A stretch of 64,000 nucleotides of DNA from Candidatus Dojkabacteria bacterium (lineage in GTDB: Bacteria > Patescibacteriota > Dojkabacteria > J137). Shown here piece after piece: positions 1 through 64,000 of this stretch. The stretch is taken from positions 711,457 through 775,456 of the forward strand of contig AP024679.1 in NCBI GenBank assembly GCA_025999215.1, written 5' to 3'. The notes beneath the pieces were generated by a model. It made no database searches. It was not told where the DNA came from and saw only the letters and a program-made list of their open reading frames with translations. The translations under genes and the position numbers were made by a program. Positions within the stretch are counted from its first letter, which is position 1. Each line of letters starts with the position of its first letter.

Positions 1-481
1 ACCAAAACGTACCAGCATCTTTTGGTGTAAATTCATATACGAAACTATCACCTGGCTCAATTGGATCTTGGTTTATTCCGGGAACACCATCCATTGCATT
101 AGGAACTCGTACTCCATGCCAATGGATTGTTGTTTCATCGGGTAGATTATTAGTAAAATTTACTTTGAGTGTATCACCTAGCTTTATTCTAATTTCTGGA
201 CCTGGCACAGAGCCGTTATAGTTCCAAACCTTAGTCTTGTATCCATCAAAAATTTCTATTTCACCTTCCGATGCTTCTAGATCTATTTCGACTACGTTGC
301 CATTTTCTTCTATATCTTCTGTATAAGCAATCCCAAATTCATCTCTAAGAGATTCTGCTGAAATATTTTCTGATTTAGAGCCAATAGTAATGGATACTAA
401 ACCCAATATTGCAATTAAAACCATAATTATTAGAAATTTAGCATAATTTTTGATCTTGTGTATATTTAATCTGATAGTCAT
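1..481 (-). CDS. Multicopper oxidase (CopA/CueO-like), N-terminal part. The gene continues beyond the window start.
   Basis: Reverse translation from the ATG at 479-481 gives MTIRLNIHKIKNYAKFLIIMVLIAILGLVS (signal anchor) ... TIHWHGVRVPNAMDGVPGINQDPIEPGDSFVYEFTPKDAGTFWYH. The HWHG...DG and WYH motifs are the type-2/3 copper sites of multicopper oxidases. It is not in the ORF track because it is truncated. Confidence 0.8.
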   Translation of the reverse strand, partial: MTIRLNIHKIKNYAKFLIIMVLIAILGLVSITIGSKSENISAESLRDEFGIAYTEDIEENGNVVEIDLEASEGEIEIFDGYKTKVWNYNGSVPGPEIRIKLGDTLKVNFTNNLPDETTIHWHGVRVPNAMDGVPGINQDPIEPGDSFVYEFTPKDAGTFW

Positions 482-508
482 ATTTTATTTATTATAATAT
501 TTAGTATG

Positions 509-1273
509 CTATTCTATATATTCTTTTTTTTCAAAATGCCTGGCACGTTCTAAGTAAAGTTTTTTGTCATCAACATTGAATACTCTCTCAATGGTCGAAT
601 GACCTGCACTAGTTGTGACTTCATAGTTGTATCCTGGAAATCTTGCTTTTGCATCAAAAAGTAGATGTGAAGGTTTATAGACTTTTGAAGATATGTTCCA
701 CGAAAATACAATAAAGCACATAAATAGGATTGAAAAAACAAATGTCCAAATAATTGGCTTAATATAAATTATCGGACTTATAAATTGATTGAAGGAATTT
801 AGATATGGAAACATAGCAAATGCAACTCCAATTCCAAATAATGTCCCTGTAATACTTCGCATCAAATTGGTGCTCTCGTAGAAAGGTAAACCACTTCCAC
901 CGTAACTAGTCATTTCAGCGATTGCCTGAATTACTCCATCCATCCCCAGAGGTATTATGAAAATTACTGCAAATATTACTGCTGTAAAAGGCTTAAGTGG
1001 TTTTAAGTTTTTTATATAAATAAGCAAAGAAGCAATTGCCATGGAACCAAACATCAGCATCATCCTTGCATCCATTGCTAGTTGATAGTCAAATAAGTGA
1101 TATGACCTCCATGGTCTTTGGTGGCAGAACCACTGATAGATCCAATAAATTGGATCTGCAATAAAATTAAGATTAAGATATGCTGCTATTGGTGCAATAA
1201 TTGGCAATAATGTAAATATAAATAAAAATACACTTAGCCCAAATAAAATTTTACGTTCAAAGCTATTCTTCAT
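509..1273 (-). CDS. Integral membrane protein, DUF2085-like (CHQRPWRSY motif)
   Basis: 254-aa ORF with multiple TM segments. The conserved CHQ-R-(P)-RS segment is typical of DUF2085 membrane proteins. It sits inside the copper gene cluster. Confidence 0.45.
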   Translation of the reverse strand: MKNSFERKILFGLSVFLFIFTLLPIIAPIAAYLNLNFIADPIYWIYQWFCHQRPWRSYHLFDYQLAMDARMMLMFGSMAIASLLIYIKNLKPLKPFTAVIFAVIFIIPLGMDGVIQAIAEMTSYGGSGLPFYESTNLMRSITGTLFGIGVAFAMFPYLNSFNQFISPIIYIKPIIWTFVFSILFMCFIVFSWNISSKVYKPSHLLFDAKARFPGYNYEVTTSAGHSTIERVFNVDDKKLYLERARHFEKKEYIE

Positions 1274-53026: not shown

Positions 53027-54589
53027 TTGAGTAACCCTGACACATTTAAAAGTTCGATTACTTCAATACCTTTATCAAAGGAAAGGAAAAGTGAAGACTT
53101 TTATAATTTTTTAAAATTTTTAAGAGAAAATAATTACGATATAGATTATATAGACTTAAATTTTTTGGCTAGATTATTTTTTTTCTTCAAACATCTAGGA
53201 ATTTCTGCTTACCATCAAATTTATGAAGAAATACAAAGAATATTAAATTTTGATTTTATAAAATTTTTAATTTTTTTGGAAAACAATAATTTTAATTTTA
53301 ATAGTAAAAACGCCTTTGAAGAAATATATAACTTTGTACAACATAATATACCAAAAAGTCAACAAATACATGAACTGTATTTGGAATTTCTAAAAACTCA
53401 ACACATAACATTTAACAATAAAAGAGAATATATATTACACGATAAAGGGTTTTTCGAAATAGTTGATTATTTTCAAAAAACTTTTTATATTGATTTTTCG
53501 AGTGAAAAGTACACTTTGGTAAAACTTTTAATATTTTTGTTTAAAGATAATACTGCAAATACGGTCGAAAATTATGCTCAACACCTCATGGAAAAGAGAA
53601 TACAGAGTCTACAACTCTTACTTCTCTCAAATTTACCAGAAGACTTACTTAATAATAATATTTTAAGAAATATATTAACATCCGAAAAATTAACAACTTA
53701 TGTCATAGATTTATTACAAAATAATTGGGATCAAATAATCGACTCCTTTCCTGAAGACAAAAAAACTTCTTTAATCATAATGTTTAATTGGATTATTGAA
53801 TTGCTTAATACTAAGCCTCAAATTACTCAAGAAATAAAATTGTTTTATGAACAAACATTAGAACCTGAAAGAATTTTAATTAATAAAATAGTTTTAAAGT
53901 ATAATTCTGAACTCAACCAAGCTATCAGTAAATTTAAAAATCTCGATACTTACGAGATTTTTTTAGATTTTCTTAATGAAACTCAAGAAATTGATGAAAG
54001 AATAAAAAGCATATTAGAATATAACGAGTGTTACGATCCCGCTGAATTGTATTCCTTGGTGATTTACGAAACTTATACATTTCAAGCTGATATCAAAGAT
54101 TTTTTATACAATTTTTTTGATACTGAAGAACAAACTGAAATAAATTCATTATTTATTAATTTGTTTTTTGAGTATATTTTTTTAAACTTAGATATTAATA
54201 TACTATCAAAACTTATACAAGGAAATATTATTGTTACGAGAAAATTTTTAAGTTTCGTTGAAAGTAAAATTATAAATGGAGTCTTTAAAGATTACTTAAG
54301 TGAAAGATTAAAAATATGCTTTATTCATATTTTCAACCAAACTCAAATAACAGGAATACAACTTAAAATTTTAGAGGTTTCTTTTGAATGTTATAAAAAA
54401 CGTAAAATTAGTAGTGAAGATTTTAAAGCTTTTATAAATTTTGTTAAGAAAAATTGCGACACCAACAATCTTGTTAGGTATGCAAATATGATGTATTTAA
54501 GTGGATATACTTCGTCAATGTATTTACATGAAAGTAATGAATTTATTGATTTCATAAACCGTAACCTCGGAGGTATATCTTTTAATTAA
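53027..54589 (+). CDS. Hypothetical protein (orphan, N/F/I/K/L-rich, soluble)
   Basis: 520-aa ORF with no recognisable motif. Its composition is biased but not purely repetitive. Confidence 0.4.
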   Translation: MSNPDTFKSSITSIPLSKERKSEDFYNFLKFLRENNYDIDYIDLNFLARLFFFFKHLGISAYHQIYEEIQRILNFDFIKFLIFLENNNFNFNSKNAFEEIYNFVQHNIPKSQQIHELYLEFLKTQHITFNNKREYILHDKGFFEIVDYFQKTFYIDFSSEKYTLVKLLIFLFKDNTANTVENYAQHLMEKRIQSLQLLLLSNLPEDLLNNNILRNILTSEKLTTYVIDLLQNNWDQIIDSFPEDKKTSLIIMFNWIIELLNTKPQITQEIKLFYEQTLEPERILINKIVLKYNSELNQAISKFKNLDTYEIFLDFLNETQEIDERIKSILEYNECYDPAELYSLVIYETYTFQADIKDFLYNFFDTEEQTEINSLFINLFFEYIFLNLDINILSKLIQGNIIVTRKFLSFVESKIINGVFKDYLSERLKICFIHIFNQTQITGIQLKILEVSFECYKKRKISSEDFKAFINFVKKNCDTNNLVRYANMMYLSGYTSSMYLHESNEFIDFINRNLGGISFN

Positions 54590-55356
54590 GTGTTTGGAGA
54601 GAGTTGATTGTTTATAAATAATTTCTTTATAGAATAAAAAACTCTTGTTTAATTGTTGTTTAAGATTAGTAAAGCTTCTGACATAAATCTTCAAAATTAA
54701 GTATTTCATCTAAAAGATAGCTAGTTCGTTTAACATCAAATGTACACAAGTTTTCGATTTTTTCAAAATCCATTGCAGTTTTCTTCTCTGTTATATGTGA
54801 TTCAACTGAAAATTTTGAAGAAGAAACCATAAGGTACACACTCTTCACATCAAAAATGACTTGATAAGTGAAAGTTATAGCTAAAGTTTTTGATTTAATC
54901 TACAAAAAAACAACAAAATATATTTATAAATTTATAATCCCTTAAAGCATAGCACAAAAAATAGTTAGAATTATGAAAGTTATATTTTTCCAATCTAGGT
55001 TGTAAATTATTTTGGATAGGATTGAACTTTAACTAACTGGATTGTATCAGGTTTTACTACAACACTAAAGTACAGAATAAAGCATTGCGTGGTACATTGC
55101 AAACTAAGATTTTACAACTTTTCGATATTTTCAACAAAATCAAAGTTATCTTTGAAAACGATGCTGGTTATACAACTTCGGGATTGACTCTAGCGGTCTA
55201 ACATGTCCGGCGTTAGTAACAGACTAAAATTAGCATAGGGTCAAATAGAAGGCAAAAGTTCTTTGTATTTTTCTACCTTTTCCTCTTTTGTCATAGCTGC
55301 ATAACGCGGTGATGGGGAAGGTAGATAAATTAATTGTACATCTGGATGATTTTCAA

Positions 55357-55762
55357 CTAAGTGTTGGAATTGTTTTTGTATTGACTTTCGATATATCTAC
55401 TAGAAAAATACACAGCCTTAATGCCAGATTTTACTAAGTTTTCTAAATTAGGATTGTGGGAAATTATTTCCAGATGGTTATCAAGGCTTGATTGCTTTGT
55501 TCTCTTACATTCGTAGATTATGTCTGTTATTCCTAACCCTAGCCTTTCGCATAACTGCATCTTTTGATCTTTAGTCTCTAATGTCAAATTGTATACTTGT
55601 CCTATTAACTTCCAGAATGGGTTTCTTCAGTTTGAATAAAACCAATTATAATCATTATTTTTAGCAATGAAATTAGATGTAAAGCTACCTAGCAGAAGGT
55701 ATTTGAAGTTCTTAGGAACAAAGTCTCCAAATTTGTGAGTTTCAATTCTAATGTTATCCATT
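55357..55762 (-). pseudogene. UDG-superfamily DNA glycosylase (hypoxanthine/mismatch DNA glycosylase-like) with one in-frame TGA
   Basis: From the ATG near 55762 the sequence is MDNIRIETHKFGDFVPKNFKYLLLGSFTSNFIAKNNDYNWFYSN*RNPFWKLIGQVYNL..., continuing as the track ORF 55357..55587 (...ERLGLGITDIIYECKRTKQSSLDNHL...). The LLLGSFPS, Y-x-x-x-NxFW and G-x-D family motifs are present, and a single TGA interrupts the N-x-FW block. Coordinates are approximate to 1 nt. Confidence 0.55.
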
Positions 55763-55926
55763 GGATTGTAACCATTTGCCTAACTCATCCCATGCATCTC
55801 CCCATACAGCAATTTCTCTTCGTCAGTCATTTCTGCAAGTGTTTTATGTTCATCTTTGACTAAGAATATTTTGTCATAACTCCAACCATTTTCGCCCCTT
55901 TCTTCTTGTATTATTGTGCCATACCC

Positions 55927-56306
55927 TCATGACTGAAATATTTCAGTTTTTTCTCCATCAGTATATGCAATTGTTCTTTGAACATATGCGGAATTATTAG
56001 GAATATTTTTAGTGAGGTCCATTAAACCTTTCTCACCAATAGTTTCTAATATGTATTTCGTATACACTCCTGGAAAATCTTTAAGATCTTCGATAAATAG
56101 ACCTGAATCCATCACTGTGAGAGCTTTTGAGTTTCTTTGAATGCTTTCTCTGCTTTATCTATTGCTACTTGAGATGGATCGTTAGATTGAATCTCATCCA
56201 ACTTGACCTCAACGCTCTTTACGTCAATCCCAAATTTCTCTAAGACAGAAGATGCTGAAGCAAGTTTGTGTTCGTTTATTGTTGTAAATAGTATTTCTTT
56301 AATCAT
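55927..56306 (-). pseudogene. Non-canonical purine NTP pyrophosphatase (RdgB/Ham1 ITPase family), frameshifted
   Basis: The track ORF 56112..56306 (MIKEILFTTINEHKL...) corresponds to the ITPase N-terminus. The ORF 55927..56115 (DSGLFIEDLKDFPGVYTKY) carries the conserved DSGL...PGVYSARY block in a different frame. The 1-nt frame change lies at about 56112-56115. Confidence 0.55.
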
Positions 56307-56819
56307 TACTTAGGAACTTTAATAATTCTATTTTTATTATATCTCGAGTGCCTTCCCAACTTAAGTCTTTATCGATATCTTCAATAGGTTCAAATTTTCG
56401 ATACTGTTGCTCTCCACCTGGGTCGTTCACAAATTCGTGTATTTCTTTTACTTTTGTAACATAACGTAATTGAGTTGTGTGATATGTTTTATTTCCATCA
56501 TCATCCAAATCCCAAGAAATCATATTGAAAAAGGTTTGATATAACTCCCATCGATCACCACAGCAGTTTCTTCATACACTTCTCTTGCAAGTGTTTGTTC
56601 TGGTGTTTCTCTTTTTTTAATTGTTCCACCTGGTAATCCCCACCAATGCTTATCTGCGCTAACAAGTAAAACCTCGTTATTGGTATTGAGCACAATACCT
56701 AAACTTTGATTTGGAACGTTTGCAAGCTTTGAAAAATCAGTATCAAAATACTCTTCAAAGAGCATATCTTGCCCATTGAAATTTATTTTTGTTGAGAGGG
56801 TAGGTTTATTCGTCATCAT
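56299..56819 (-). pseudogene. Nudix hydrolase, frameshifted just after the Nudix box
   Basis: The ORF 56520..56819 ends 10 aa after the Nudix box GLPGGTIKKRETPEQTLAREVYEETAV. The remaining C-terminal fold is encoded in the overlapping ORF 56299..56523, in another frame. The junction lies near an A5 run (56527-56531). Confidence 0.5.
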
Positions 56820-57410
56820 AATGAAATACTAAATTAACTACCTCATCTTCGAATTTAGGCTCATTGGTATCAGATATTCTATAACTGTGATCAGCCCCCT
56901 CAATTTCAATAACTCTAGCCTCAGATAATCCATTGCTATATAAATCCTTCCTAACTGCATCTGCATTTCCTAATCTATCATTTGAACCTTGAATGACTGT
57001 TAAATTACCTTTGAAACCGGATAGATCAATATCTCCCAAAACATATCCAGGTATTACAACTTCAATTTTCTTCTCATGTAAATCTTTTTGATTATTCTGC
57101 AAGTATTTAGCTAATACTATATCTCCAAGTGATTTTGCTATAAATTTAATCTCTTTAAAATTAAATTGACTGATAAAGTTAATTATCTGTGCGATAGTCT
57201 GTTGCTCTTCTGTTAAATCTTCTCCTGAACTATTTTCCTCACCTCGATCTAAATACGGAAAGTTGAAGGTGATTGTACTTATACCGCTAGCAGTAGATTT
57301 TTTATAGAGTTTCTCCATAAAGGGAGTTCAATCCCTTTAGAACCGCCATGAATAATTATATTGATAGCATTACCCTTTGTAAAAGAGAATTTAAGTTTTG
57401 GAAAAATCAT
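56806..57410 (-). pseudogene. Alpha/beta-hydrolase (KANL3/Tex30-like), N-terminus in a different frame
   Basis: The track ORF 56806..57318 (…FNFPYLDRGE…GADHSY…) lacks its N-terminus. An upstream out-of-frame segment from the ATG at about 57410 encodes MIFPKLKFSFTKGNAINIIIHGGSKGIELPL, the expected HGG oxyanion-hole start of this hydrolase family. Confidence 0.45.
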
Positions 57411-57434: not shown

Positions 57435-58583
57435 TTATCTTAATGTTATCTCTCCCCCAAAGTCAACTGAAAGCCCTTGTGTAATTCTCTCAACAAAGTT
57501 TTCCTGGGAATAATCTCTATTTATTAACTGCACTCCGTTTTCTCTAATACTAGACCAGATGCTTTCCTCAGTATAAAGTAGCCTTAGCTTATATGCGAAT
57601 TCATCTGGAGTATCGGCAACCATTGCGTTAATTCCATCGGTTAATCCAACCTGCCTAGCAATAATAGAGGTGGTAATCACTGGCATACCCATTGAGATGG
57701 CTTCGGTTACTTTCCAAGGTAATCCAGCAGCATATCTGGTCGGTGCAACGAATACACGCGAACTAGAATAAAATTGTGAGATATCTTCAACTCTCCCATG
57801 AATACGCACAAAGGTACTTTCTAGTTCCCTTACCCTCTTCGATGAGCAGATACCAATCAAATCTAAATGTCCTAATTCAGATATGTCATCACTTAAATAT
57901 GGTAGTACGTTATTAATAAACCATAGTATAGAGTTGCTATTAGGTGTGTCATCACCGTGCATTGCACCCACAAATAGTAACCCTTTTCTATTATTAAATG
58001 CATAACCCTTTTCCGATATTTCTAAAGATGGATGCCCAATAATATCTATTCTTACGTCTACAATTTGACTATTAACGAGAATTTGTCTCTCATGTTCTGA
58101 AACAACCCACACTGAGTTAGCATGTTTTGCATATTTCATCTCTTCTCGAATAATCCTTATTCTTTCCTTTAAAGCAACAGGATGTTCCAACTCCATTTTT
58201 GCAATTGTTCTTAAAGAACCAATAGCCTCAGTATCAAAAATAATTGGAATATTTATATTTAATCCATTTTCTATTAATTCTCCTACTCTCCTCATATTAT
58301 GTGCTCTAGATACTATGATCTTTTTAAACGCACTAGATTCCCTTCTGAGAAAGTCACCTAATCTTTCTTTGCTTTTGTCATCTGCTCTTAGAAATCTAAC
58401 ATTGGGATATTTATTTACAAATCTTTCATAGTATTCTGGATACTCATCAGGTTTAAGAGCGTAAAAAGTTACCGTCTTACCCAATATATTGCTAATCACA
58501 TGTAGGATATTTGAAGCTCTTGGATACCCAGCACCTAAAAACGGATAGGGTATTCGGTCTTCGATTATAAGTATTTCACTCAT
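57435..58583 (-). CDS. Glycosyltransferase family 4
   Basis: 382 aa. The C-terminal segment RVFVAPTRYAAGLPWKVTEAISMGMPVITT...GLTDG fits the GT4 (GT-B) donor-binding region. Confidence 0.75.
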   Translation of the reverse strand: MSEILIIEDRIPYPFLGAGYPRASNILHVISNILGKTVTFYALKPDEYPEYYERFVNKYPNVRFLRADDKSKERLGDFLRRESSAFKKIIVSRAHNMRRVGELIENGLNINIPIIFDTEAIGSLRTIAKMELEHPVALKERIRIIREEMKYAKHANSVWVVSEHERQILVNSQIVDVRIDIIGHPSLEISEKGYAFNNRKGLLFVGAMHGDDTPNSNSILWFINNVLPYLSDDISELGHLDLIGICSSKRVRELESTFVRIHGRVEDISQFYSSSRVFVAPTRYAAGLPWKVTEAISMGMPVITTSIIARQVGLTDGINAMVADTPDEFAYKLRLLYTEESIWSSIRENGVQLINRDYSQENFVERITQGLSVDFGGEITLR

Positions 58584-59587
58584 TATTTGGGATAGGGTTT
58601 AACTAATACTCCGTCTTTCCAGAAACCAATACTTTGGTTCAATCTTCTTAAAAACCAATAGTTATAGTAAGATTCATCTAACATTAATTTATTTACGTTA
58701 ACTCCTAGCTCTATTTCTCTTGATAAAAAATCGTAAATATCTTTTTTCCACTTTTCAAAAAAAACTAGATTAGGTTTTTTATAATATTCATCCATCTTTA
58801 CTTTTTGAGAACTCTTCAACCGAACATTAAAAGCTTTATGCCTGAAATGATGAACAAAAACATTTGTAGCTATTCCCAATTTGTAACCATTTGTTGATAT
58901 GCGCCAAGATAAATCAATATCCTCAGATCCATGTGGAAATTTTGGATCAATGATACCCCCAACCTTATTGATAAGTTTATTTCTTACTATGAAGCAACAT
59001 CCCCCAATATGTGCAGGCGGACATTCAACGTATTTAACACCATTACTGTGCATAGCCAGGAAATCTTTAACGAACTCATCGAAAGAAGAACCTCTAGTTA
59101 AACCGGAGATTTCATTCTCTATCGATAACCCAAGGGGAAGACCGTTCACAACATCGTCTGTAGAGGAATTAATATATGGATGTTCGAATATTGGTAGAGG
59201 CCTTGCTGGTCCGAGCATAGCAAGAGTTTTATCCTTATTGAACTCTTCAAGCATCTTTTCCAACCATTTTTTGGAAAATAGTAAGTCATTATTAAGAATA
59301 ACCGTAAAGTTACAATTCTTAAAATATTCTCTTGCTGAATAGATTGCCCCTCCATAACCAAGATTTTGATTTTTAAGCAACACATTAATGTCTGCATTAG
59401 GATAATAATTGTGTATGTCTTTTAAATAATCTCTAGTACCGTCTGTGGAGTTATTGTCTACTATTGTAAAAGTAAATTTTTTTTCAGTTGATTCATACAA
59501 ACTTTTTATAGTTAGCTTGGTATATTCTAAAGCATTCCAAGTAACCATAAGAATATGAATTTTGGGATCTGAATCTAAATTTTTCAA
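58583..59587 (-). CDS. Glycosyltransferase family 2
   Basis: 334 aa with an N-terminal GT-A domain (ILMVTWNALEYT...VDNNSTDGT, the DxD-like NNDLL, and SEDIDLSWR). Confidence 0.75.
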   Translation of the reverse strand: MKNLDSDPKIHILMVTWNALEYTKLTIKSLYESTEKKFTFTIVDNNSTDGTRDYLKDIHNYYPNADINVLLKNQNLGYGGAIYSAREYFKNCNFTVILNNDLLFSKKWLEKMLEEFNKDKTLAMLGPARPLPIFEHPYINSSTDDVVNGLPLGLSIENEISGLTRGSSFDEFVKDFLAMHSNGVKYVECPPAHIGGCCFIVRNKLINKVGGIIDPKFPHGSEDIDLSWRISTNGYKLGIATNVFVHHFRHKAFNVRLKSSQKVKMDEYYKKPNLVFFEKWKKDIYDFLSREIELGVNVNKLMLDESYYNYWFLRRLNQSIGFWKDGVLVKPYPK

Positions 59588-60195
59588 TTAATGTATTTCT
59601 GCTTAAGAATTTGAATTATCTCTGATTGTAATGCATTTTCCAACGCCTCCAATTGTTCAATAGGATGGAAAAACATTTTTGAATCTGGATCATCTGGTTC
59701 ACTTTCATTGAATACAAGTGAGTCCGCATCAACGTTGATGATAAAAACCTTTTCTGGACCAAAATTTTCTTTGTGTTGTTCATGTACCATTTCATAATCA
59801 TATTTGGTTATATCAATACCCACTTCCTCCTTCATCTCTCGTATTAAGGCATCTACTATTTTCTCACCTTCTCTAACGTGTCCTCCTGGGAAAACATGGT
59901 AAGTAAAGTTTGGCCTAACCCGCTTGATTATTAAGGCCTTACTGCCATCTGTAATAACTCCAATTACATAAGTAGTTGTGTCCAGCTTTACCTGGTTTCT
60001 GTTAATACTATGTCCTGATTCATTTAGGAATTCCACATTCAATACCTCATACTTTTTTTTATCTTGATTAATGTATATTTTTCCATTCTCAGTAAAAGGT
60101 TTCCCCGACCTCATCCCAATTAATTCAGCGCCCACTGGGTTGTAGTCCTTTATTATTATTGTAACTCCAAATTCAGTATATTTTATTTCGTCCAT
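59584..60195 (-). CDS. Nudix hydrolase
   Basis: 203 aa with the Nudix box GGHVREGEKIVDALIREMKEEVGI. Confidence 0.75.
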   Translation of the reverse strand: MDEIKYTEFGVTIIIKDYNPVGAELIGMRSGKPFTENGKIYINQDKKKYEVLNVEFLNESGHSINRNQVKLDTTTYVIGVITDGSKALIIKRVRPNFTYHVFPGGHVREGEKIVDALIREMKEEVGIDITKYDYEMVHEQHKENFGPEKVFIINVDADSLVFNESEPDDPDSKMFFHPIEQLEALENALQSEIIQILKQKYIN

Positions 60196-60218
60196 ACAAT
60201 TTTAGATAAAAATTTAAA

Positions 60219-61229
60219 TTAAAGTATTCTAGATAATACATAATCTCTAATACTAGTTATAGGTGTATCTATACTTTTATCATTTACTATTCTACCAATA
60301 AGTAGATCATTCCTTAAAGCTAAATATGCTTTATGATATAAGTCTCTTTTATATTGAATTAATTGAGTTAAATGCCCCATAGCATTACCTTGATGTAATT
60401 GAGATACAGCATTTGATTCCAGCTGTTTTGCACTTATAAATGGAATATGTCCCATTGATATTTGGATAAATGTTTGCACATCTGTATCTAATCCATACCC
60501 ACCGGGTAGAACCTCAATTATTCCACCTAGCTTCATCTCGTGAGGTGTGTCAACAGTTCTTTTATAAAACTTCTTGCCATAACTTGTAAACCGATAATTA
60601 GGACTTCTCTCGTCTTCAATTTTATTTGAATATATTGTAGATACAGGTCTTAGCACTCCATTATTCATATCAAATTCGTTCCAATCATCAGAAACCATGA
60701 CAAATCTATCCGGAGCTTCAACTTCTACCATCGAAGATACAGTTGATTTTCCTAAAGTACCATCACCTACTAATATGAATGCTAATGAACGTTTTCTATC
60801 GTATATACAAGAAGAATGTAACCCAATTAATCCATCTTCGATTCCACAGAAGGAACGTATTCCGTATACTAATGATGAAGCAATTCCAAAAAGACCTGCA
60901 CCGGCAAATGCAAATGATCTAAGATCGTAGGTGGTATAAATTTCCCCTAGATCTTCAATGGTCATCATTCTGATTAATGGTGTCCCGTCCTTATCTAAAA
61001 ATGGTAGAGGGGATTGGGTCAAATAGTAAAGTGCGGGCTTCCCTCTTTTCAATGTCGGAAGGTAAAAGTCCTCCTCTGCTTCAAGAAAATTTGAATGTAA
61101 TATTGGATCATCAGTAATGAATCTGACTCCAACCAGACTAGACTCACTTAAGACTTCATTATTAGCTTCAATTGTATTTTGAATCGGTGCCTCACCGAAT
61201 CTGACTTCTCTTACAGGTTTGTCAATCAT
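60219..61229 (-). CDS. Hypothetical P-loop protein with an HprK/P C-domain-like GDGTLGKST motif (putative kinase)
   Basis: 336 aa. LAFILVGDGTLGKSTVSSMVE resembles the HPr kinase C-terminal P-loop (ILITGxSGxGKSE). The N-terminal region is unassigned. Confidence 0.35.
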   Translation of the reverse strand: MIDKPVREVRFGEAPIQNTIEANNEVLSESSLVGVRFITDDPILHSNFLEAEEDFYLPTLKRGKPALYYLTQSPLPFLDKDGTPLIRMMTIEDLGEIYTTYDLRSFAFAGAGLFGIASSLVYGIRSFCGIEDGLIGLHSSCIYDRKRSLAFILVGDGTLGKSTVSSMVEVEAPDRFVMVSDDWNEFDMNNGVLRPVSTIYSNKIEDERSPNYRFTSYGKKFYKRTVDTPHEMKLGGIIEVLPGGYGLDTDVQTFIQISMGHIPFISAKQLESNAVSQLHQGNAMGHLTQLIQYKRDLYHKAYLALRNDLLIGRIVNDKSIDTPITSIRDYVLSRIL

Positions 61230-61960
61230 ATATTGTGTGCATTAGAAATAAAATTATTTTTATCAATATCCTGTCTTTGTTTTAAAACAACTTTTTTAGG
61301 TAGTTCTATTTTCTCCCTATATTTAGGAAAACCTGAATAGTAATTACCTTCATAGTAACTTAGTAAAAGTGGATACTTTTCTAAATATTTGTCCCTATCA
61401 ATTTGAAACTCTTCTTCTTTTAATCTGGCATGTTTCCGAATATATTCCTTACGCAGAAAATATTCAGTTAGAAGTGCCTTATCCTCATCAGTCACAAAAT
61501 TTTCAGTATAATTTATTAGATCATCAGCCTCAGAATTTTTATAAATGAAACTATGAGGGCTTATTGTTAGTATCGTTTTAATAGCTGATGTACCCTTCCT
61601 AGCAACCTCCCTCTTTGCAGTATCGATATCAACAATGTTAATTGTCATGCAGTAGTTCATTTTTTCCTTTATATTATTCTCGCTGATATAGCTTTCAATA
61701 TTTTTTTTACATATATTCTTATCCGAACTTATAATTAAAACATCTACATCGGGTCTGATTTCTAATTTCGTAAATGTAGATTTTTGGAACTTGTTCTTAA
61801 AATAAACCCTGGTATCGACGTAAGACACATCTGGTAGCTCATCTTTACGTTCGTATAAGAATGAACCATGAAGTACTGTAGTTAATATGTTCTCCTCATT
61901 TATAGTTGAGATATCTCCTAGAAACTCTATTGGATCGGGTTTAAAATTTCTTTTTTTCAT
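61226..61960 (-). CDS. Hypothetical protein
   Basis: 244-aa ORF. Its start overlaps the stop of the upstream FAD oxidase, so it is co-transcribed with the glycan locus. It has a possible weak hGS...D-x-D nucleotidyltransferase-like pattern, which is not convincing. Confidence 0.35.
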   Translation of the reverse strand: MKKRNFKPDPIEFLGDISTINEENILTTVLHGSFLYERKDELPDVSYVDTRVYFKNKFQKSTFTKLEIRPDVDVLIISSDKNICKKNIESYISENNIKEKMNYCMTINIVDIDTAKREVARKGTSAIKTILTISPHSFIYKNSEADDLINYTENFVTDEDKALLTEYFLRKEYIRKHARLKEEEFQIDRDKYLEKYPLLLSYYEGNYYSGFPKYREKIELPKKVVLKQRQDIDKNNFISNAHNI

Positions 61961-63264
61961 TGTGTAAAAACTTTTAATAAGTATTTATTCAAAAATTTCT
62001 TTTTCGGATCGAGTGATTCACGTAATTCAAGGAAATCCGACCATTTCGGATAAAGTCCTGATAGTATTTTCCCATCAGCTAAAAACTTCTTTGCCCAATG
62101 GGGACGTCCTTGATATTTTAAAAATATTCTCTCAATTGATCTAAATGCTTCATATTCATCTGCTTTAGAGGGTACCCTGCAAGTAAGCCCCACGGTGACT
62201 ATATCTCTTTGATAAGCATAACTTAACCAAGAATTGTCTCGTTTAACTATTCTTATATCCATTGGAATATGTGCATATGCTATGTTGTTATGTGATTCAA
62301 ATTCTTTTTTCAGTTCTACAAAAAGATCATGAAAATTATCTCTAGCAACTGTCCACTCTGTTATTTCAGAAGTACCCTTACCTCTAACTTTTGTTACTGT
62401 AGTTTCGTAAAGATTCCCTGAATGCTCTTTTTTGAATGTATAGAATAATAAAAAGATTAGCTTGTTTATATAAACAGAAAATCTTGGATAGTTAAAACAA
62501 ATCTCATACAGTTTGGTAGATAAATATCTTCTATATTTAAGATGTCGAGGTCCTTTCTTTTGTTTTATACTTTGATAATCAGTTACCTTATCGCCGGTGA
62601 TTACGTAACCAAATCCGGTATGCGGTAACCACAAAACTCTAAAAAAATCATGATTTCTTGCCAACATGTCAAATTTATCAACCCATACTTTGTCCCTAAT
62701 AGGTCTTTCCTTGATGTGTAAAATGTATTCTTCTGTACATTGGAAGGTTACTTCAGAAATAATTCCAAGAACACCTAATGAAACTCTTACAGCTGCCATG
62801 TTGTCATTCAACTCATCAATGATTTGTATTTGACCATCTGCCGTAATTAGCCTTAACGCTACTACATACTGAGACAGAATATAACCCTCATCTGAAGTGC
62901 CATGTGTTGCAGTTGCAATTGCTCCTCCGATGGATATTGAGCTAATGTCAGGTAAGCAAGGAATTGTCCATTTCAACTTGGATAGTTCATCTAATAGATC
63001 TGAAAGCATAGCTCCTGACTCTATTGTGATCCTCTTATTTTTATGATCGATATTTTTTATCCTATTATATTTTTTCAAACTAATTAATGTATCAGTTCCC
63101 CCAGCTATATCAGAGGTTGAATGCCCTGCACCAACAACCCTTACTTTAGCAGAGTTAGCTATTATTCTTCTCAGCTCAGGTTCTGATTTAGGATAATAGA
63201 TTTTTTCATAAGTGTGTTTAATATTACCATTCCAGTTTTGCCAGGTTTTATTAGCGTTTTTCAT
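61957..63264 (-). CDS. FAD-linked oxidase of the sugar-1,4-lactone oxidase family (GULO/ALO-like)
   Basis: 435 aa. The N-terminal FAD_binding_4 domain is VRVVGAGHSTSDIAGGTDTLISL, and the C-terminal GRPHWAKKF (HWAK motif) is typical of ALO/GULO-type oxidases. Confidence 0.65.
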   Translation of the reverse strand: MKNANKTWQNWNGNIKHTYEKIYYPKSEPELRRIIANSAKVRVVGAGHSTSDIAGGTDTLISLKKYNRIKNIDHKNKRITIESGAMLSDLLDELSKLKWTIPCLPDISSISIGGAIATATHGTSDEGYILSQYVVALRLITADGQIQIIDELNDNMAAVRVSLGVLGIISEVTFQCTEEYILHIKERPIRDKVWVDKFDMLARNHDFFRVLWLPHTGFGYVITGDKVTDYQSIKQKKGPRHLKYRRYLSTKLYEICFNYPRFSVYINKLIFLLFYTFKKEHSGNLYETTVTKVRGKGTSEITEWTVARDNFHDLFVELKKEFESHNNIAYAHIPMDIRIVKRDNSWLSYAYQRDIVTVGLTCRVPSKADEYEAFRSIERIFLKYQGRPHWAKKFLADGKILSGLYPKWSDFLELRESLDPKKKFLNKYLLKVFTQ

Positions 63265-63836
63265 TCTATAGATTTTAAAAGTTGAATCTCTAATAATTCA
63301 CATATAATGTGAATTATTGTTATGTGAGATTCTTGGATTCTAGGAGTATTTGAGGAATCGACTATGAGACTATGTTCTACTAAATCCTTCATTAAACCAC
63401 CATTATTGCCAATCAATCCTATTGTGCGTATATTCATTTCTTTTGCTCTATTAACTGCTTCAAGTATATTTCTCGAGGTACCGCTTGTTGATATGCCAAT
63501 AAATACATCACCTGGCTTTCCTAGTGCTTCTATTTGCCTTGAAAATATATTGTTAAAGTCAACATCATTAGACCATGCGGTTATGAACGAAGAATCTACT
63601 GTCAAAGCAATGCATGCTAAACCTTGCCTGTTAATTTTAAACTTACCGACTAACTCAGCTGCAAAGTGCTGTGCATCCGCTGCACTTCCACCGTTTCCAG
63701 CTATCATAATTTTATTACCTTGTTTTAAAACATCTAAAAGAATTAATATAGTTTTTTCGATATCATTATTGAGAGATATAAGGCTTTTCTTAACTGAAAA
63801 ACTTTCTTCTATTTGTTCTCTGATTCTAGTTTTCAT
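63261..63836 (-). CDS. gmhA: Phosphoheptose (sedoheptulose-7-phosphate) isomerase, SIS domain
   Basis: 191 aa with IMIAGNGGSAADAQHFAAELVGKF and GISTSGTS, typical of GmhA/DiaA SIS proteins. Confidence 0.75.
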   Translation of the reverse strand: MKTRIREQIEESFSVKKSLISLNNDIEKTILILLDVLKQGNKIMIAGNGGSAADAQHFAAELVGKFKINRQGLACIALTVDSSFITAWSNDVDFNNIFSRQIEALGKPGDVFIGISTSGTSRNILEAVNRAKEMNIRTIGLIGNNGGLMKDLVEHSLIVDSSNTPRIQESHITIIHIICELLEIQLLKSIE

Positions 63837-63924: not shown

Positions 63925-64000
63925 CTCATTTTCTCTAATTTTTAATATACTTACTTTAACCACTTTTCCTGATGGACTTTCAAAGTCAAAGCCTTTACCT
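63925..64000 (-). CDS. C-terminal end of an unidentified gene that continues beyond the window end
   Basis: An open frame on the minus strand (...GKGFDFESPSGKVVKVSILKIRENE*) runs off the 3' edge of the window. Confidence 0.25.

Follow-up and report, generated by a model that had tools for sequence, protein, structure and literature searches.

The tiny genome of this Dojkabacteria (CPR) bacterium contains a seven-gene operon with a conserved core consisting of two orphan genes, here named U244 (244 aa) and P336 (336 aa), together with an oxidoreductase and a nucleotide phosphohydrolase. Matches among its relatives place P336, by a transitive link, as the founder of a rare new family within the HPr-kinase/PEPCK P-loop superfamily. 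The operon as a whole is probably an accessory, horizontally mobile one for sugar activation and tailoring; it probably makes an unusual activated sugar, which in this genome is possibly a heptose.

Organization of the operon and assignment of its products

The seven genes (Table 1) are intact and co-oriented, in the order GmhA, ALO/GULO-type FAD oxidase, U244, P336, Nudix, GT2 and GT4, spanning positions 57435–63836 on the minus strand of the window, by which we mean the whole 64-kb stretch of DNA that was analysed. The sequence inspected at this locus amounts to 64 kb (+1.4 kb) of an 862-kb contig. A previous sequence-only reading had placed the same seven ORFs on one strand, as we find them, and had described their stops and starts as all overlapping; this is nearly but not fully exact, since five junctions overlap (by 4 bp at GmhA/ALO, ALO/U244, U244/P336 and Nudix/GT2, and by 1 bp at GT2/GT4), but P336 and the Nudix gene are separated by a 23-bp gap. 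A 116-bp gap follows GT4. The surrounding genes are decayed, nucleotide-sanitising ones among them, and upstream of gmhA there are only gene fragments (locus L001). Just past the end of the window, at a distance of about 540 bp from gmhA, one finds an ORF of 101 aa that resembles the HAD superfamily (L001 608–913).

Table 1. Genes of the operon, in order of transcription
Gene	Predicted product	Length	Coordinates	Strand	Features
gmhA	gmhA-like sedoheptulose-7-phosphate isomerase	191 aa	63261..63836	-	SIS_2, E=3e-26; first gene of operon
ALO	ALO/GULO/alditol-oxidase-type flavoenzyme, VAO superfamily	435 aa	61957..63264	-	FAD_binding_4 + ALO
U244	Orphan family; candidate Pol-beta-fold nucleotidyltransferase	244 aa	61226..61960	-	C-terminal helical domain; conserved partner of P336
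P336	P-loop protein	336 aa	60219..61229	-	Walker A GDGTLGKS at residues 155-162
Nudix	Cassette-specific Nudix hydrolase	203 aa	59584..60195	-	~75-aa N-terminal extension, then Nudix domain with complete catalytic set
GT2	GT2 glycosyltransferase	334 aa (TTG start) or 321 aa (next ATG)	58583..59587	-	PF00535, E=5e-18
GT4	GT4 (GT-B) glycosyltransferase, soluble	382 aa	57435..58583	-	Glyco_trans_1_4, E=3e-19; last operon gene

Five of the products had been assigned previously, and profile and structure matches agree with those assignments. GmhA scores 208.7 bits against TIGR00441 (cutoff 209.45) and 125.7 bits against the DiaA model, aligns with Campylobacter jejuni GmhA (1tk9) at E=2e-53, and conserves AADAQHFAAEL and IQExH. 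The Nudix domain (PF00293, E=1e-13, residues 77–186) has a complete Nudix box, GHVREGEKIVDALIREMKEEVGI, at residues 105–127. The GT2 is soluble, with no hydrophobic segment, and the best NCBIfam match of the GT4, TIGR03087 at 88 bits, is far under cutoff.

The fifth, described as a sugar-1,4-lactone oxidase family FAD enzyme with an HWAK motif, matches PF04030 ALO (E=1e-45) and FAD_binding_4 (E=1e-23); its HWAK motif is at residue 389 and its GAGHS at 45. It shares this two-domain architecture and HWAK with ALO/GULO/GLDH, AldO and DprE1, but falls under every subfamily cutoff (247 bits for TIGR01678 and 245 bits for TIGR01679), is only about 27–30% identical to annotated bacterial homologues, and sits in a glycan-type operon. 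Among solved structures xylitol/alditol oxidase 2vfr is nearest (E=2e-36), with DprE1 at E~1e-11. The GAGHS histidine of the enzyme aligns with the covalent-FAD histidine in the GSGHSF segment of AldO, and the enzyme probably carries covalent FAD. Because of the glycan-type operon, and because NAD(P)-dependent SDR and AroE-like enzymes occupy its slot in the sister cassettes described below, the substrate is suggested to be a sugar or nucleotide-sugar hydroxyl rather than the free lactone of vitamin C-type chemistry; the enzyme is the putative redox-tailoring component of the Dojkabacteria-type cassette.

The P336 and U244 families

P336 itself has no family match and no significant direct match to any kinase model, and its AF2 model has a pLDDT of 35. 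Among 1.84 billion (1.84e9) proteins its family has 49 representatives at E<=1e-3, all of them metagenomic and without names, in which G136, H138, G160, K161, D181, W183, K219 and P263 are invariant. Members of the family match Hpr_kinase_C (6.7e-9), TIGR00679 (3.3e-9), PEPCK_ATP, TIGR04352 and ScmC, and one of them, P0053, can be aligned with HprK of Lactobacillus casei (1jb1; E=3e-6) over the His / Walker-A / Asp-Asp segment. The HprK/P-like P-loop proposed for the 336-aa protein is thus borne out, but only transitively, and P336 is presumed to be a phosphotransferase. HprK-related kinase A is matched by nine family members and ScmC by five; the latter is tied by its name to the SynChlorMet cassette. 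The neighbours of more distant P336 relatives include GT2s, methyltransferases and one alpha/beta-hydrolase.

U244 likewise has no family match, and none to any NTP-transferase Pfam model. Its family contains an invariant hGS...PDVD motif, and a low-confidence model gives weak, sub-significant fold matches to Pol-beta-type nucleotidyltransferases, including Tam41, which nucleotidylates a phosphomonoester. U244 may thus be a Pol-beta-fold nucleotidyltransferase, and the suggestion that it stands in place of a canonical enzyme, as the missing nucleotidyltransferase, is plausible on the grounds of the motif and these matches.

A cassette recurring in metagenomic loci

The ALO-U244-P336-Nudix order and its tight junctions recur in three other metagenomic contigs, L002 and L004 among them, with 42–77% protein identity and different flanks, which argues that the arrangement is not a chance one. 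In L002 and L004 the ALO orthologues (59–74% identity) occupy the same position and Nudix orthologues (53–69%) follow P336. GmhA is present in two of the three close loci, being kept in L002 but missing from L004, and none was detected in the available sequence of seven more distant loci. The GT2 and GT4 are missing after the Nudix gene of L002. GmhA is thus accessory to the conserved cassette, the two transferases are locus-specific, accessory additions, and the earlier picture of a unit formed by GmhA and replacement enzymes feeding two glycosyltransferases is not sustained. Because the ALO-U244-P336-Nudix block exists with or without them, it is the orphan genes that form the core.

About 10 independent metagenomic loci carry the U244 and P336 pair. 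Where a locus is Dojkabacteria-like, the ALO oxidase and the cassette-specific Nudix accompany the pair. Every locus of the closer subfamily instead has an NDP-sugar-type RmlD-like SDR directly after the P-loop gene, usually followed by an AroE-like dehydrogenase and then by an HD hydrolase or a Nudix of the same subfamily, often with a GT2 directly upstream to which the window GT2 is not orthologous. An HD hydrolase holds the Nudix slot in L009, L011, L012 and L016, all of which contain both U244 and P336 homologues, and in L014 the slot has a weak NDK-like match. The Nudix subfamily is nonetheless common to both cassette types: in L017 a 202-aa Nudix of the same architecture (28% identity over 195 aa, E=6e-23) follows the P-loop, SDR and AroE-like genes. 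Since the FAD oxidase and SDR share a position, as do the Nudix and HD enzymes, we argue that they have equivalent roles.

The sister cassettes resemble dTDP-rhamnose-type RmlB/C/D and Campylobacter GDP-heptose tailoring systems in sharing an RmlD-like reductase (with a cupin in one case) and in adjoining a GT2, but they contain no RmlA-type nucleotidyltransferase or 4,6-dehydratase, and the window version is without the SDR. On the HldD heptose-epimerase model the sister-cassette SDRs score 51–60 bits, under cutoff.

A putative sugar cassette and its alternatives

We tentatively read the operon as a non-orthologous 'phosphorylate, nucleotidylate, redox-tailor, transfer' sugar cassette built on P336 and U244, and give this account somewhat less than an even chance of being right. 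GmhA, on the basis of strong homology, would convert sedoheptulose-7-P to D-glycero-D-manno-heptose-7-P; P336 would phosphorylate a sugar hydroxyl at the expense of ATP, and U244 might, more speculatively, attach a nucleotide to the sugar phosphate, yielding an NDP-sugar. The covalent-FAD ALO-type enzyme would then oxidise a hydroxyl of that sugar (a step for the RmlD-like SDR, usually with the AroE-like dehydrogenase, in sister cassettes), and the Nudix enzyme (HD in most sister cassettes) would cleave a nucleotide-diphosphate linkage, either trimming a phosphate, which is the job of GmhB, or releasing or policing an activated intermediate. Finally, the soluble GT2 and GT4 would transfer the product onto an acceptor.

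This reading draws on the 1–4-bp overlaps, the intactness of the genes amid decay, the conserved ALO-U244-P336-Nudix order, the U244/P336 co-occurrence, the placement of the SDR and GT2 genes, the matching slots of FAD oxidase and SDR and of Nudix and HD, the Nudix subfamily common to both cassette types, the GT2s near distant P336 relatives, the GmhA homology, the NTase-like motif and weak fold matches of U244, and the placement of P336 in a superfamily with a PEPCK branch that works on small molecules. Against it, P336 has no direct significant kinase-model match, the U244 assignment stands on a motif and the sub-significant matches of a low-confidence model, the HprK-family enzymes characterised in the literature searched act on protein or peptide serines rather than sugars, a HAD-like fragment lies upstream of gmhA, and the operon lacks a membrane-anchored priming transferase, a flippase and a polymerase.

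Like NDP-heptose biosynthesis (GmhA with HldE or HddA/HddC and GmhB, with or without HldD) for LPS cores, S-layer glycans and capsules, the operon opens with a GmhA-like isomerase, and its parts list follows the same logic: it offers candidates for the kinase and the nucleotidyltransferase, has a phosphohydrolase as well as an oxidoreductase, and ends in glycosyltransferases. The downstream parts are non-homologous, however. The P-loop protein is of the HprK/PEPCK type and not PfkB/GHMP, the putative NTase is Pol-beta-like and not RmlA-like or cytidylyltransferase-like, the phosphohydrolase is Nudix/HD and not HAD, the redox enzyme is a predicted ALO-family covalent flavoprotein, and GmhA is no constant member. 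Consistent with the earlier claim that the canonical heptose-activating enzymes are missing from the locus, a motif search over all ORFs in the 64 kb of the window gave no PfkB, no GHMP, no HAD-type DxDxT, no NTP_transferase and no cytidylyltransferase, and a survey of CPR classes reports the canonical route to ADP-heptose for Paceibacteria alone, not for Dojkabacteria (PMC9166423); both points also favour the sugar cassette. The non-canonical nucleotide-heptose or oxidised-sugar pathway proposed previously is thus supported in part. We favour the general scheme and are less sure that its substrate is a heptose: with no GmhA in L004 and none detected in the available sequence of the sister cassettes heptose cannot be the general substrate, and the composition of the conserved core leaves it as one option among others.

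The main rival is phospho-modification of a macromolecule, which we consider rather unlikely but serious, as all the HprK-family enzymes characterised in the literature searched place their phosphate on serines of proteins or peptides, often with an NTP transferase as partner. P336 would then phosphorylate a serine, or another hydroxyl, of some peptide, protein or glycan that is encoded elsewhere, U244 would behave like the 'NTP transferase' of paeninodin-, pseudomycoidin- and LPP-type RiPP clusters, adding a sugar or nucleotide to the phosphate, and GmhA, the oxidoreductases, Nudix/HD and transferases would make or trim an unusual sugar donor. P336 shares with HPr kinase/phosphorylase and the RiPP kinases PadeK, PsmK and LppK the superfamily, the layout and spacing of the His / Walker-A / Asp-Asp segment, and an overall length of about 310–350 aa, and its pairing with a putative nucleotidyltransferase recalls the pseudomycoidin and LPP clusters (PsmN and similar). 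The family matches to HprK-related kinase A and ScmC, the solubility of the window's transferases and the lack of lipid-carrier machinery also agree with it, and an 'HprK-like kinase + uncharacterized NTP transferase' pair serves as a conserved core in a new family of RiPPs (PMC13381572). Unlike these kinases, P336 has no direct HMM match, and the ExRGxG signature is absent from all 43 family members compared (0/43). ExRGxG is an HPr-binding-type signature. Near P336 there is no HPr, precursor peptide, RRE, protease or exporter, and no RRE/PqqD, lasso cyclase/protease, signal peptidase or dedicated exporter occurs in the window or most loci; a comparison of 315 candidate small ORFs beside the cassettes of 10 loci gave chance-level matches only and no conserved one, and U244 matches no NTP-transferase Pfam model. 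The constant neighbours of P336 are sugar oxidoreductases and nucleotide hydrolases, and it is linked tightly and universally to a reductase of the NDP-sugar type, a trait more usual in pathways for sugars.

We regard as improbable an ordinary heptose-glycan locus, in which the canonical kinase, phosphatase and nucleotidyltransferase would be elsewhere and P336 and U244 unrelated or accessory, acting for example in regulation or phosphorylation of the finished glycan. The canonical genes could be located in another part of the 862-kb genome, given the extent of sequence inspected, the HAD-like fragment hints that canonical parts were once nearby, and neither GmhA nor the transferases are fixed cassette parts; however, the translationally coupled ALO-U244-P336-Nudix block is conserved with or without them, and the motif search and CPR survey argue likewise.

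There is only a slight chance of a nucleotide-centred system, with the NTase-fold, P-loop and Nudix/HD proteins making and degrading a modified nucleotide or nucleotide signal, for instance in defence/conflict or as part of salvage in a CPR cell auxotrophic for nucleotides, and the oxidoreductase modifying ribose as DprE1, a ribose 2'-oxidase, does: the third cassette slot is always a nucleotide-handling enzyme, the ALO enzyme is related to DprE1, the flanks differ per locus, the operon sits among decayed nucleotide-sanitising genes, and the Nudix matches PADLOC candidate PDC-S07 (E=6e-11), but P336, U244, ALO and GmhA have no PADLOC match, phage and plasmid records contain no homologues, an effector-like gene is lacking, and the constant partners are of sugar type (RmlD-like SDR, GT2, GmhA) rather than nucleases or toxins.

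The U244 and P336 pair and its partners

All seven open reading frames that the sequence-only reading had placed on the minus strand of the window are present, and domain scans bear out its identification of the GmhA-like protein, the FAD oxidase, the Nudix protein and the GT2 and GT4 glycosyltransferases. The genes are co-oriented and mostly overlap as it had described, by 4 bp or, between GT2 and GT4, by 1 bp, but one junction is a 23-bp gap. All seven products are predicted to be soluble. P336, a 336-aa P-loop protein, and U244, a protein of 244 aa, are identical to the NCBI entries 'hypothetical protein KatS3mg085_749' and '_750' respectively, and because both are called hypothetical, standard annotation misses them entirely as a module. 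The source is a metagenome-assembled genome of Candidatus Dojkabacteria (CPR/Patescibacteria) with a G+C content of about 31%.

Close relatives of the cassette share 42–88% identity with it, and their gene orders are given in the table. The more distant relatives of P336 (approximately 30% identity) are all encoded directly upstream of an RmlD-like SDR, which occupies the place of the ALO-type FAD oxidase in these sister cassettes; the two SDRs that were scanned score 119–144 bits against TIGR01214, below its cutoff. Relatives that are more distant still have GT2s, methyltransferases and an alpha/beta-hydrolase as neighbours. We conclude from this comparison of loci that U244 and P336 are a conserved pair, that the pair is always accompanied by an oxidoreductase (either the ALO flavoenzyme or the SDR, with or without an AroE-like dehydrogenase) and by a nucleotide phosphohydrolase (either the cassette-specific Nudix protein or an HD protein), and that GmhA and the window GT2 and GT4 are local additions. 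The cupin and the weakly NDK-like protein of one sister cassette (L014) are further examples of such part-swapping, which may give clues to the substrate. The Nudix protein of another (L017) is a homologue of the window Nudix from end to end, N-terminal extension included (28% identity over 195 aa, E=6e-23). We also considered whether the window GT2 corresponds to the GT2 of the sister cassettes, and comparison shows that the two are not orthologous.

The operon points to a recurring module of U244 and P336, linked to sugar tailoring by the genes around it. As a glycan or sugar operon it belongs to a kind of system that is already known; what is new is its modular exchange, in which FAD- and NAD(P)-type redox enzymes replace each other, as do Nudix and HD hydrolases, together with the P336 family and a tightly linked orphan family, possibly of nucleotidyltransferases, represented by U244. 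All occurrences of this core are in CPR-like genomes that are low in G+C and come from uncultured bacteria. Searches of 185,579 species-representative genomes with two different P336 alignments yielded no member of the P336 family, and phage and plasmid records yielded none either; of two metagenome scans, the first recovered nothing and the second a single locus, L017. We note that restriction-modification or serine recombinase/resolvase genes adjoin several of the sister cassettes, an association consistent with residence of the cassette in mobile or variable genome regions.

Features of the operon, its surroundings and related loci (L001, contig identical to the window; L002–L005, close relatives; the remainder, more distant loci)
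Contig	Position	Strand	Feature	Remarks
Window	57435-63836	-	Operon: GmhA, ALO-type FAD oxidase, U244, P336, Nudix, GT2, GT4
Window	53027-54589	+	520-aa Asn/Phe/Ile-rich ORF	TTG start; strand opposite the operon
Window	within 54590-56819		MutT-like Nudix	Apparently split, 99-aa and 74-aa pieces
Window	within 54590-56819		Ham1/ITPase-like gene	Split, 64-aa and 62-aa pieces
Window	within 54590-56819		Other short ORFs
Window	56806-57318	-	Abhydrolase_11 protein, 170 aa	116-bp gap after the operon; match begins at profile position 20
L001			GreA C-terminal fragment	Upstream of gmhA
L001			56-aa ORF	Upstream of gmhA
L001	~344-598	+	XRE-type HTH gene	In-frame stop inside; upstream of the operon, outside the window
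L001	608-913	+	HAD-like ORF, 101 aa	~540 bp upstream of gmhA, just past window position 64000
L002			(GmhA)-ALO-U250-P340-Nudix	Followed by unrelated opposite-strand genes; no GTs
L002	4098-4859	-	XRE-HTH protein, 253 aa	Intact
L003, L005			ALO-U-P-Nudix	Fragments of this arrangement
L004			ALO-U244-P338-Nudix	Divergent membrane protein before; no GmhA
L008	68-673		Restriction-modification or serine recombinase/resolvase
L009, L010			GT2, P-loop, SDR, HD, U248	U248 on the other strand
L011			U241, P-loop, SDR, AroE-like, HD
L011	14218-15696		Restriction-modification or serine recombinase/resolvase
L012, L016			U244-like, GT2, P-loop, SDR, AroE-like dehydrogenase, HD
L012	5158-9146	-	Restriction-modification or serine recombinase/resolvase
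L014			Cupin, P-loop, SDR, 213-aa protein
L014	7162-7563		Cupin_2 protein, 133 aa	Overlaps the P-loop gene at its start
L014	9491-10132		213-aa protein in the hydrolase slot	Weak NDK-like match only, E=5e-4
L017			P-loop, SDR, AroE-like, 202-aa Nudix

Relationships of P336 and U244

P336 and three close relatives have no sequence match in Pfam, NCBIfam or the PDB, and an AlphaFold2 model of P336 built from a three-sequence alignment was unusable (pLDDT 35). An exhaustive HMMER profile search of 1.84 billion representative proteins yielded a family of 49 members at E<=1e-3 (21 at E<=1e-30), mostly of 290–376 aa; the ten that were checked are all without a name, and the sources are Logan, ENA, JGI or NCBI metagenome assemblies. 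A third, word-indexed protein search contributed no more than two further distant members that could be used. An alignment of 43 sequences shows that G136, H138, G160, K161, D181, W183, K219 and P263 are invariant, and the family motif can be written LGLHS-(15-18)-GxxxxGK[ST]-(15-18)-hhhDDW. The catalytic layout is HprK-like, with H138, G155-S162 and D181-D182 invariant or nearly so, the His lying 15–18 residues from the Walker A motif and GK[ST] lying 15–18 from DDW (22 in one member).

The family members provide the matches that P336 itself does not. Among the 43, PEPCK_ATP is matched by 13 and Hpr_kinase_C by six (best 6.7e-9) in Pfam, and the NCBIfam models matched are PEPCK (14 members), HprK-related kinase A (nine), TIGR00679 HPr(Ser) kinase (five, best 3.3e-9) and ScmC (five). 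Against solved HprK chains, the profile of the family gives an alignment across the P-loop-plus-DD stretch, and a distant member, P0053 (E=4e-5 against the P336 profile in 1.84e9 proteins), matches the L. casei HprK/P structure 1jb1 at E=3e-6 exactly over the His, Walker A and Asp-Asp elements. The description of P336 as carrying an HprK/P-like P-loop is therefore right at the superfamily level. However, the ExRGxG motif, which we take to be the HprK signature sequence, is present in none of the 43 members, and the operon contains no HPr-like gene; because of these absences and the lack of a direct match, P336 appears from its sequence to be a member of the HprK/PEPCK superfamily but not an HprK orthologue. 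The P336 family is a previously undescribed one within that superfamily.

Neither U244 nor its close relatives match any sequence model in Pfam, NCBIfam or PDB searches. A sub-threshold match to NARF (E=0.019) was set aside because other members did not show it, and an hhalign comparison of the family with the CCA-adding enzyme encoded in the window detected no relationship. The invariant residues shared by seven divergent members are H31-G32-S33, P70-D71-x-D73, D80, N108, E118, R170-K171 and R215/K217. A marginal AF2 model (pLDDT 57, pTM 0.60) resembles Pol-beta-type nucleotidyltransferases in that HGS closes strand 1 and DVD is carried by the core strand that comes after it, with a helix and a further strand beyond; the hG[GS]...DxD motif is thus on the expected secondary-structure elements, with an unusually long insert of 37 residues between its two parts. 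Assignment of U244 as a nucleotidyltransferase is reasonable but unproven.

A possible route to activated sugars

The GmhA-like protein (SIS_2) scores 208.7 bits against TIGR00441, 0.75 bit short of the 209.45 cutoff, as compared with 125.7 bits for the paralogue DiaA. It matches C. jejuni GmhA (1tk9) at E=2e-53 over residues 18–183, and the alignment includes AADAQHFAAEL and a C-terminal QExH, presumably the active-site segments with the catalytic residues. The oxidase exceeds the Pfam thresholds for both PF04030 ALO (156.6 bits) and PF01565 FAD_binding_4 (83.5 bits), and has HWAK at 389 and, aligned to the GSGHSF of AldO, GAGHS at 45, whose His we assume to be the site of covalent FAD attachment. 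It falls in no defined subfamily, scoring 247 bits against TIGR01678 lactone oxidase (cutoff 396.8), 245 bits against TIGR01679 bacterial FAD oxidoreductase (cutoff 292) and 72 bits against the DprE1 model (cutoff 500); alditol/xylitol oxidase is its nearest solved relative, with DprE1 more distant. An ascorbate-like lactone pathway is unsupported, because these subfamily cutoffs are not reached and SDR and AroE-like enzymes take the place of ALO in the sister cassettes. The Nudix protein has a complete Nudix box (GHVREGEKIVDALIREMKEEVGI, residues 105–127) behind an N-terminal extension of about 75 aa, and scores 51.5 bits against PF00293 (cutoff 21.1) while reaching no NCBIfam equivalog.

Domain scans of the operon reveal no PfkB/GHMP heptose kinase, HAD-type GmhB or RmlA-like/cytidylyltransferase domain. 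In agreement with the claim that the canonical heptose enzymes are missing from the locus, no ORF of the 64-kb window carries a diagnostic motif, and upstream there is only a 101-aa HAD-like fragment. A phosphotransferase and a possible nucleotidyltransferase recur together with an oxidoreductase (either NDP-sugar-type or a sugar-alcohol/sugar-lactone oxidase), a nucleoside-diphosphate-X hydrolase and frequently a GT2, and these parts follow the logic by which nucleotide sugars are activated and tailored. GmhA would form D-glycero-D-manno-heptose-7-P, the sole step based on strong homology; P336 might then phosphorylate the heptose phosphate, U244 nucleotidylate it, the ALO enzyme oxidise a hydroxyl, the Nudix protein cleave or trim the diphosphate linkage, and the two soluble glycosyltransferases, GT2 and GT4, transfer the product. 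We tentatively favour such a non-orthologous pathway, running from GmhA through GT2/GT4, because of the logic of the parts, the absence of canonical motifs from the 64 kb, and a survey of freshwater CPR in which the canonical ADP-heptose pathway occurs only in Paceibacteria (PMC9166423). The earlier proposal of a non-canonical nucleotide-heptose or oxidised-sugar pathway is thus partly supported: the reading of non-orthologous sugar activation is retained, but the core is U244 and P336, with GmhA and the glycosyltransferases added locally. A broader form is unlikely as a whole, namely that P336 as a sugar or sugar-phosphate kinase and U244 as a Pol-beta-fold nucleotidyltransferase constitute a third pathway, non-orthologous, by which nucleotide-activated sugars are made, acting on heptose here and on other sugars in the sister cassettes, with plug-in redox (covalent flavoprotein, or SDR with AroE-like) and hydrolase (Nudix/HD) modules, and so far seen only in uncultured, mostly CPR-like bacteria.

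The strongest rival, which we consider doubtful, is that an HprK-like kinase and an NTP-transferase phospho-modify a protein or peptide in the manner of RiPPs. The characterised HprK homologues in the literature searched act on protein or peptide serines, and in paeninodin-, pseudomycoidin- and LPP-type RiPP clusters an HprK homologue is accompanied by an 'NTP transferase' that attaches hexoses to the phosphate (PMC8498205; PMC13381572). However, no conserved small ORF flanks the cassettes (315 candidates at 10 loci), and there is no RRE/PqqD, leader peptidase, lasso cyclase or constant exporter in the window operon or the conserved part of the 10 loci. It is quite unlikely that the canonical heptose genes, missing from the window, are encoded elsewhere in the genome. 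A nucleotide-centred system of defence or salvage is improbable, as PADLOC has no match for P336, U244, ALO, GmhA or GT4, the match of the Nudix protein to candidate PDC-S07 (E=6e-11) is one of Nudix-domain similarity, and the phage and plasmid searches gave no support for defence.

CPR bacteria account for a large share of bacterial diversity and live attached to host cells, so that surface glycans are likely to be central to their lifestyle; to our knowledge, their surface chemistry is almost unknown. If the pair does activate sugars, the HprK branch of the superfamily would gain its first small-sugar kinase in P336, U244 would found a new nucleotidyltransferase family, the use of GmhA by genomes without HldE, HddA and HddC would be explained, and new nucleotide-heptose-type molecules could result, a class with innate-immune relevance via ALPK1. 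Should the pair instead phospho-glycosylate proteins, RiPP-type chemistry would extend to CPR cell surfaces.

Surroundings of the operon

The Logan contig L001, whose sequence is identical to the window, reaches 1.4 kb further and shows that gmhA is the first gene of the operon. The HAD-like ORF upstream contains FDINGTL ... TGD ... K ... FDDV and scores 23 bits against Hydrolase_3, above the cutoff; HAD phosphatases are normally far longer, and Asn stands in place of the second Asp in motif I. The ORF could represent either what is left of a GmhB-type phosphatase or a HAD protein of minimal size. The interrupted XRE-type HTH gene has an intact counterpart adjoining the Nudix gene in a related soil contig (L002), and may represent a regulator associated with the cassette and now decayed in the source genome.

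Directly downstream of the operon, approximately 2.2 kb of the window contains only fragments and no RNA gene, so that an intact operon lies in a decaying, and probably also variable, region. The G+C content of the operon is 0.334, compared with 0.308 for the rest of the window. We note also that alpha/beta-hydrolases, such as the Abhydrolase_11 protein that follows the operon, are encoded near distant P336 relatives in L006 and L009.
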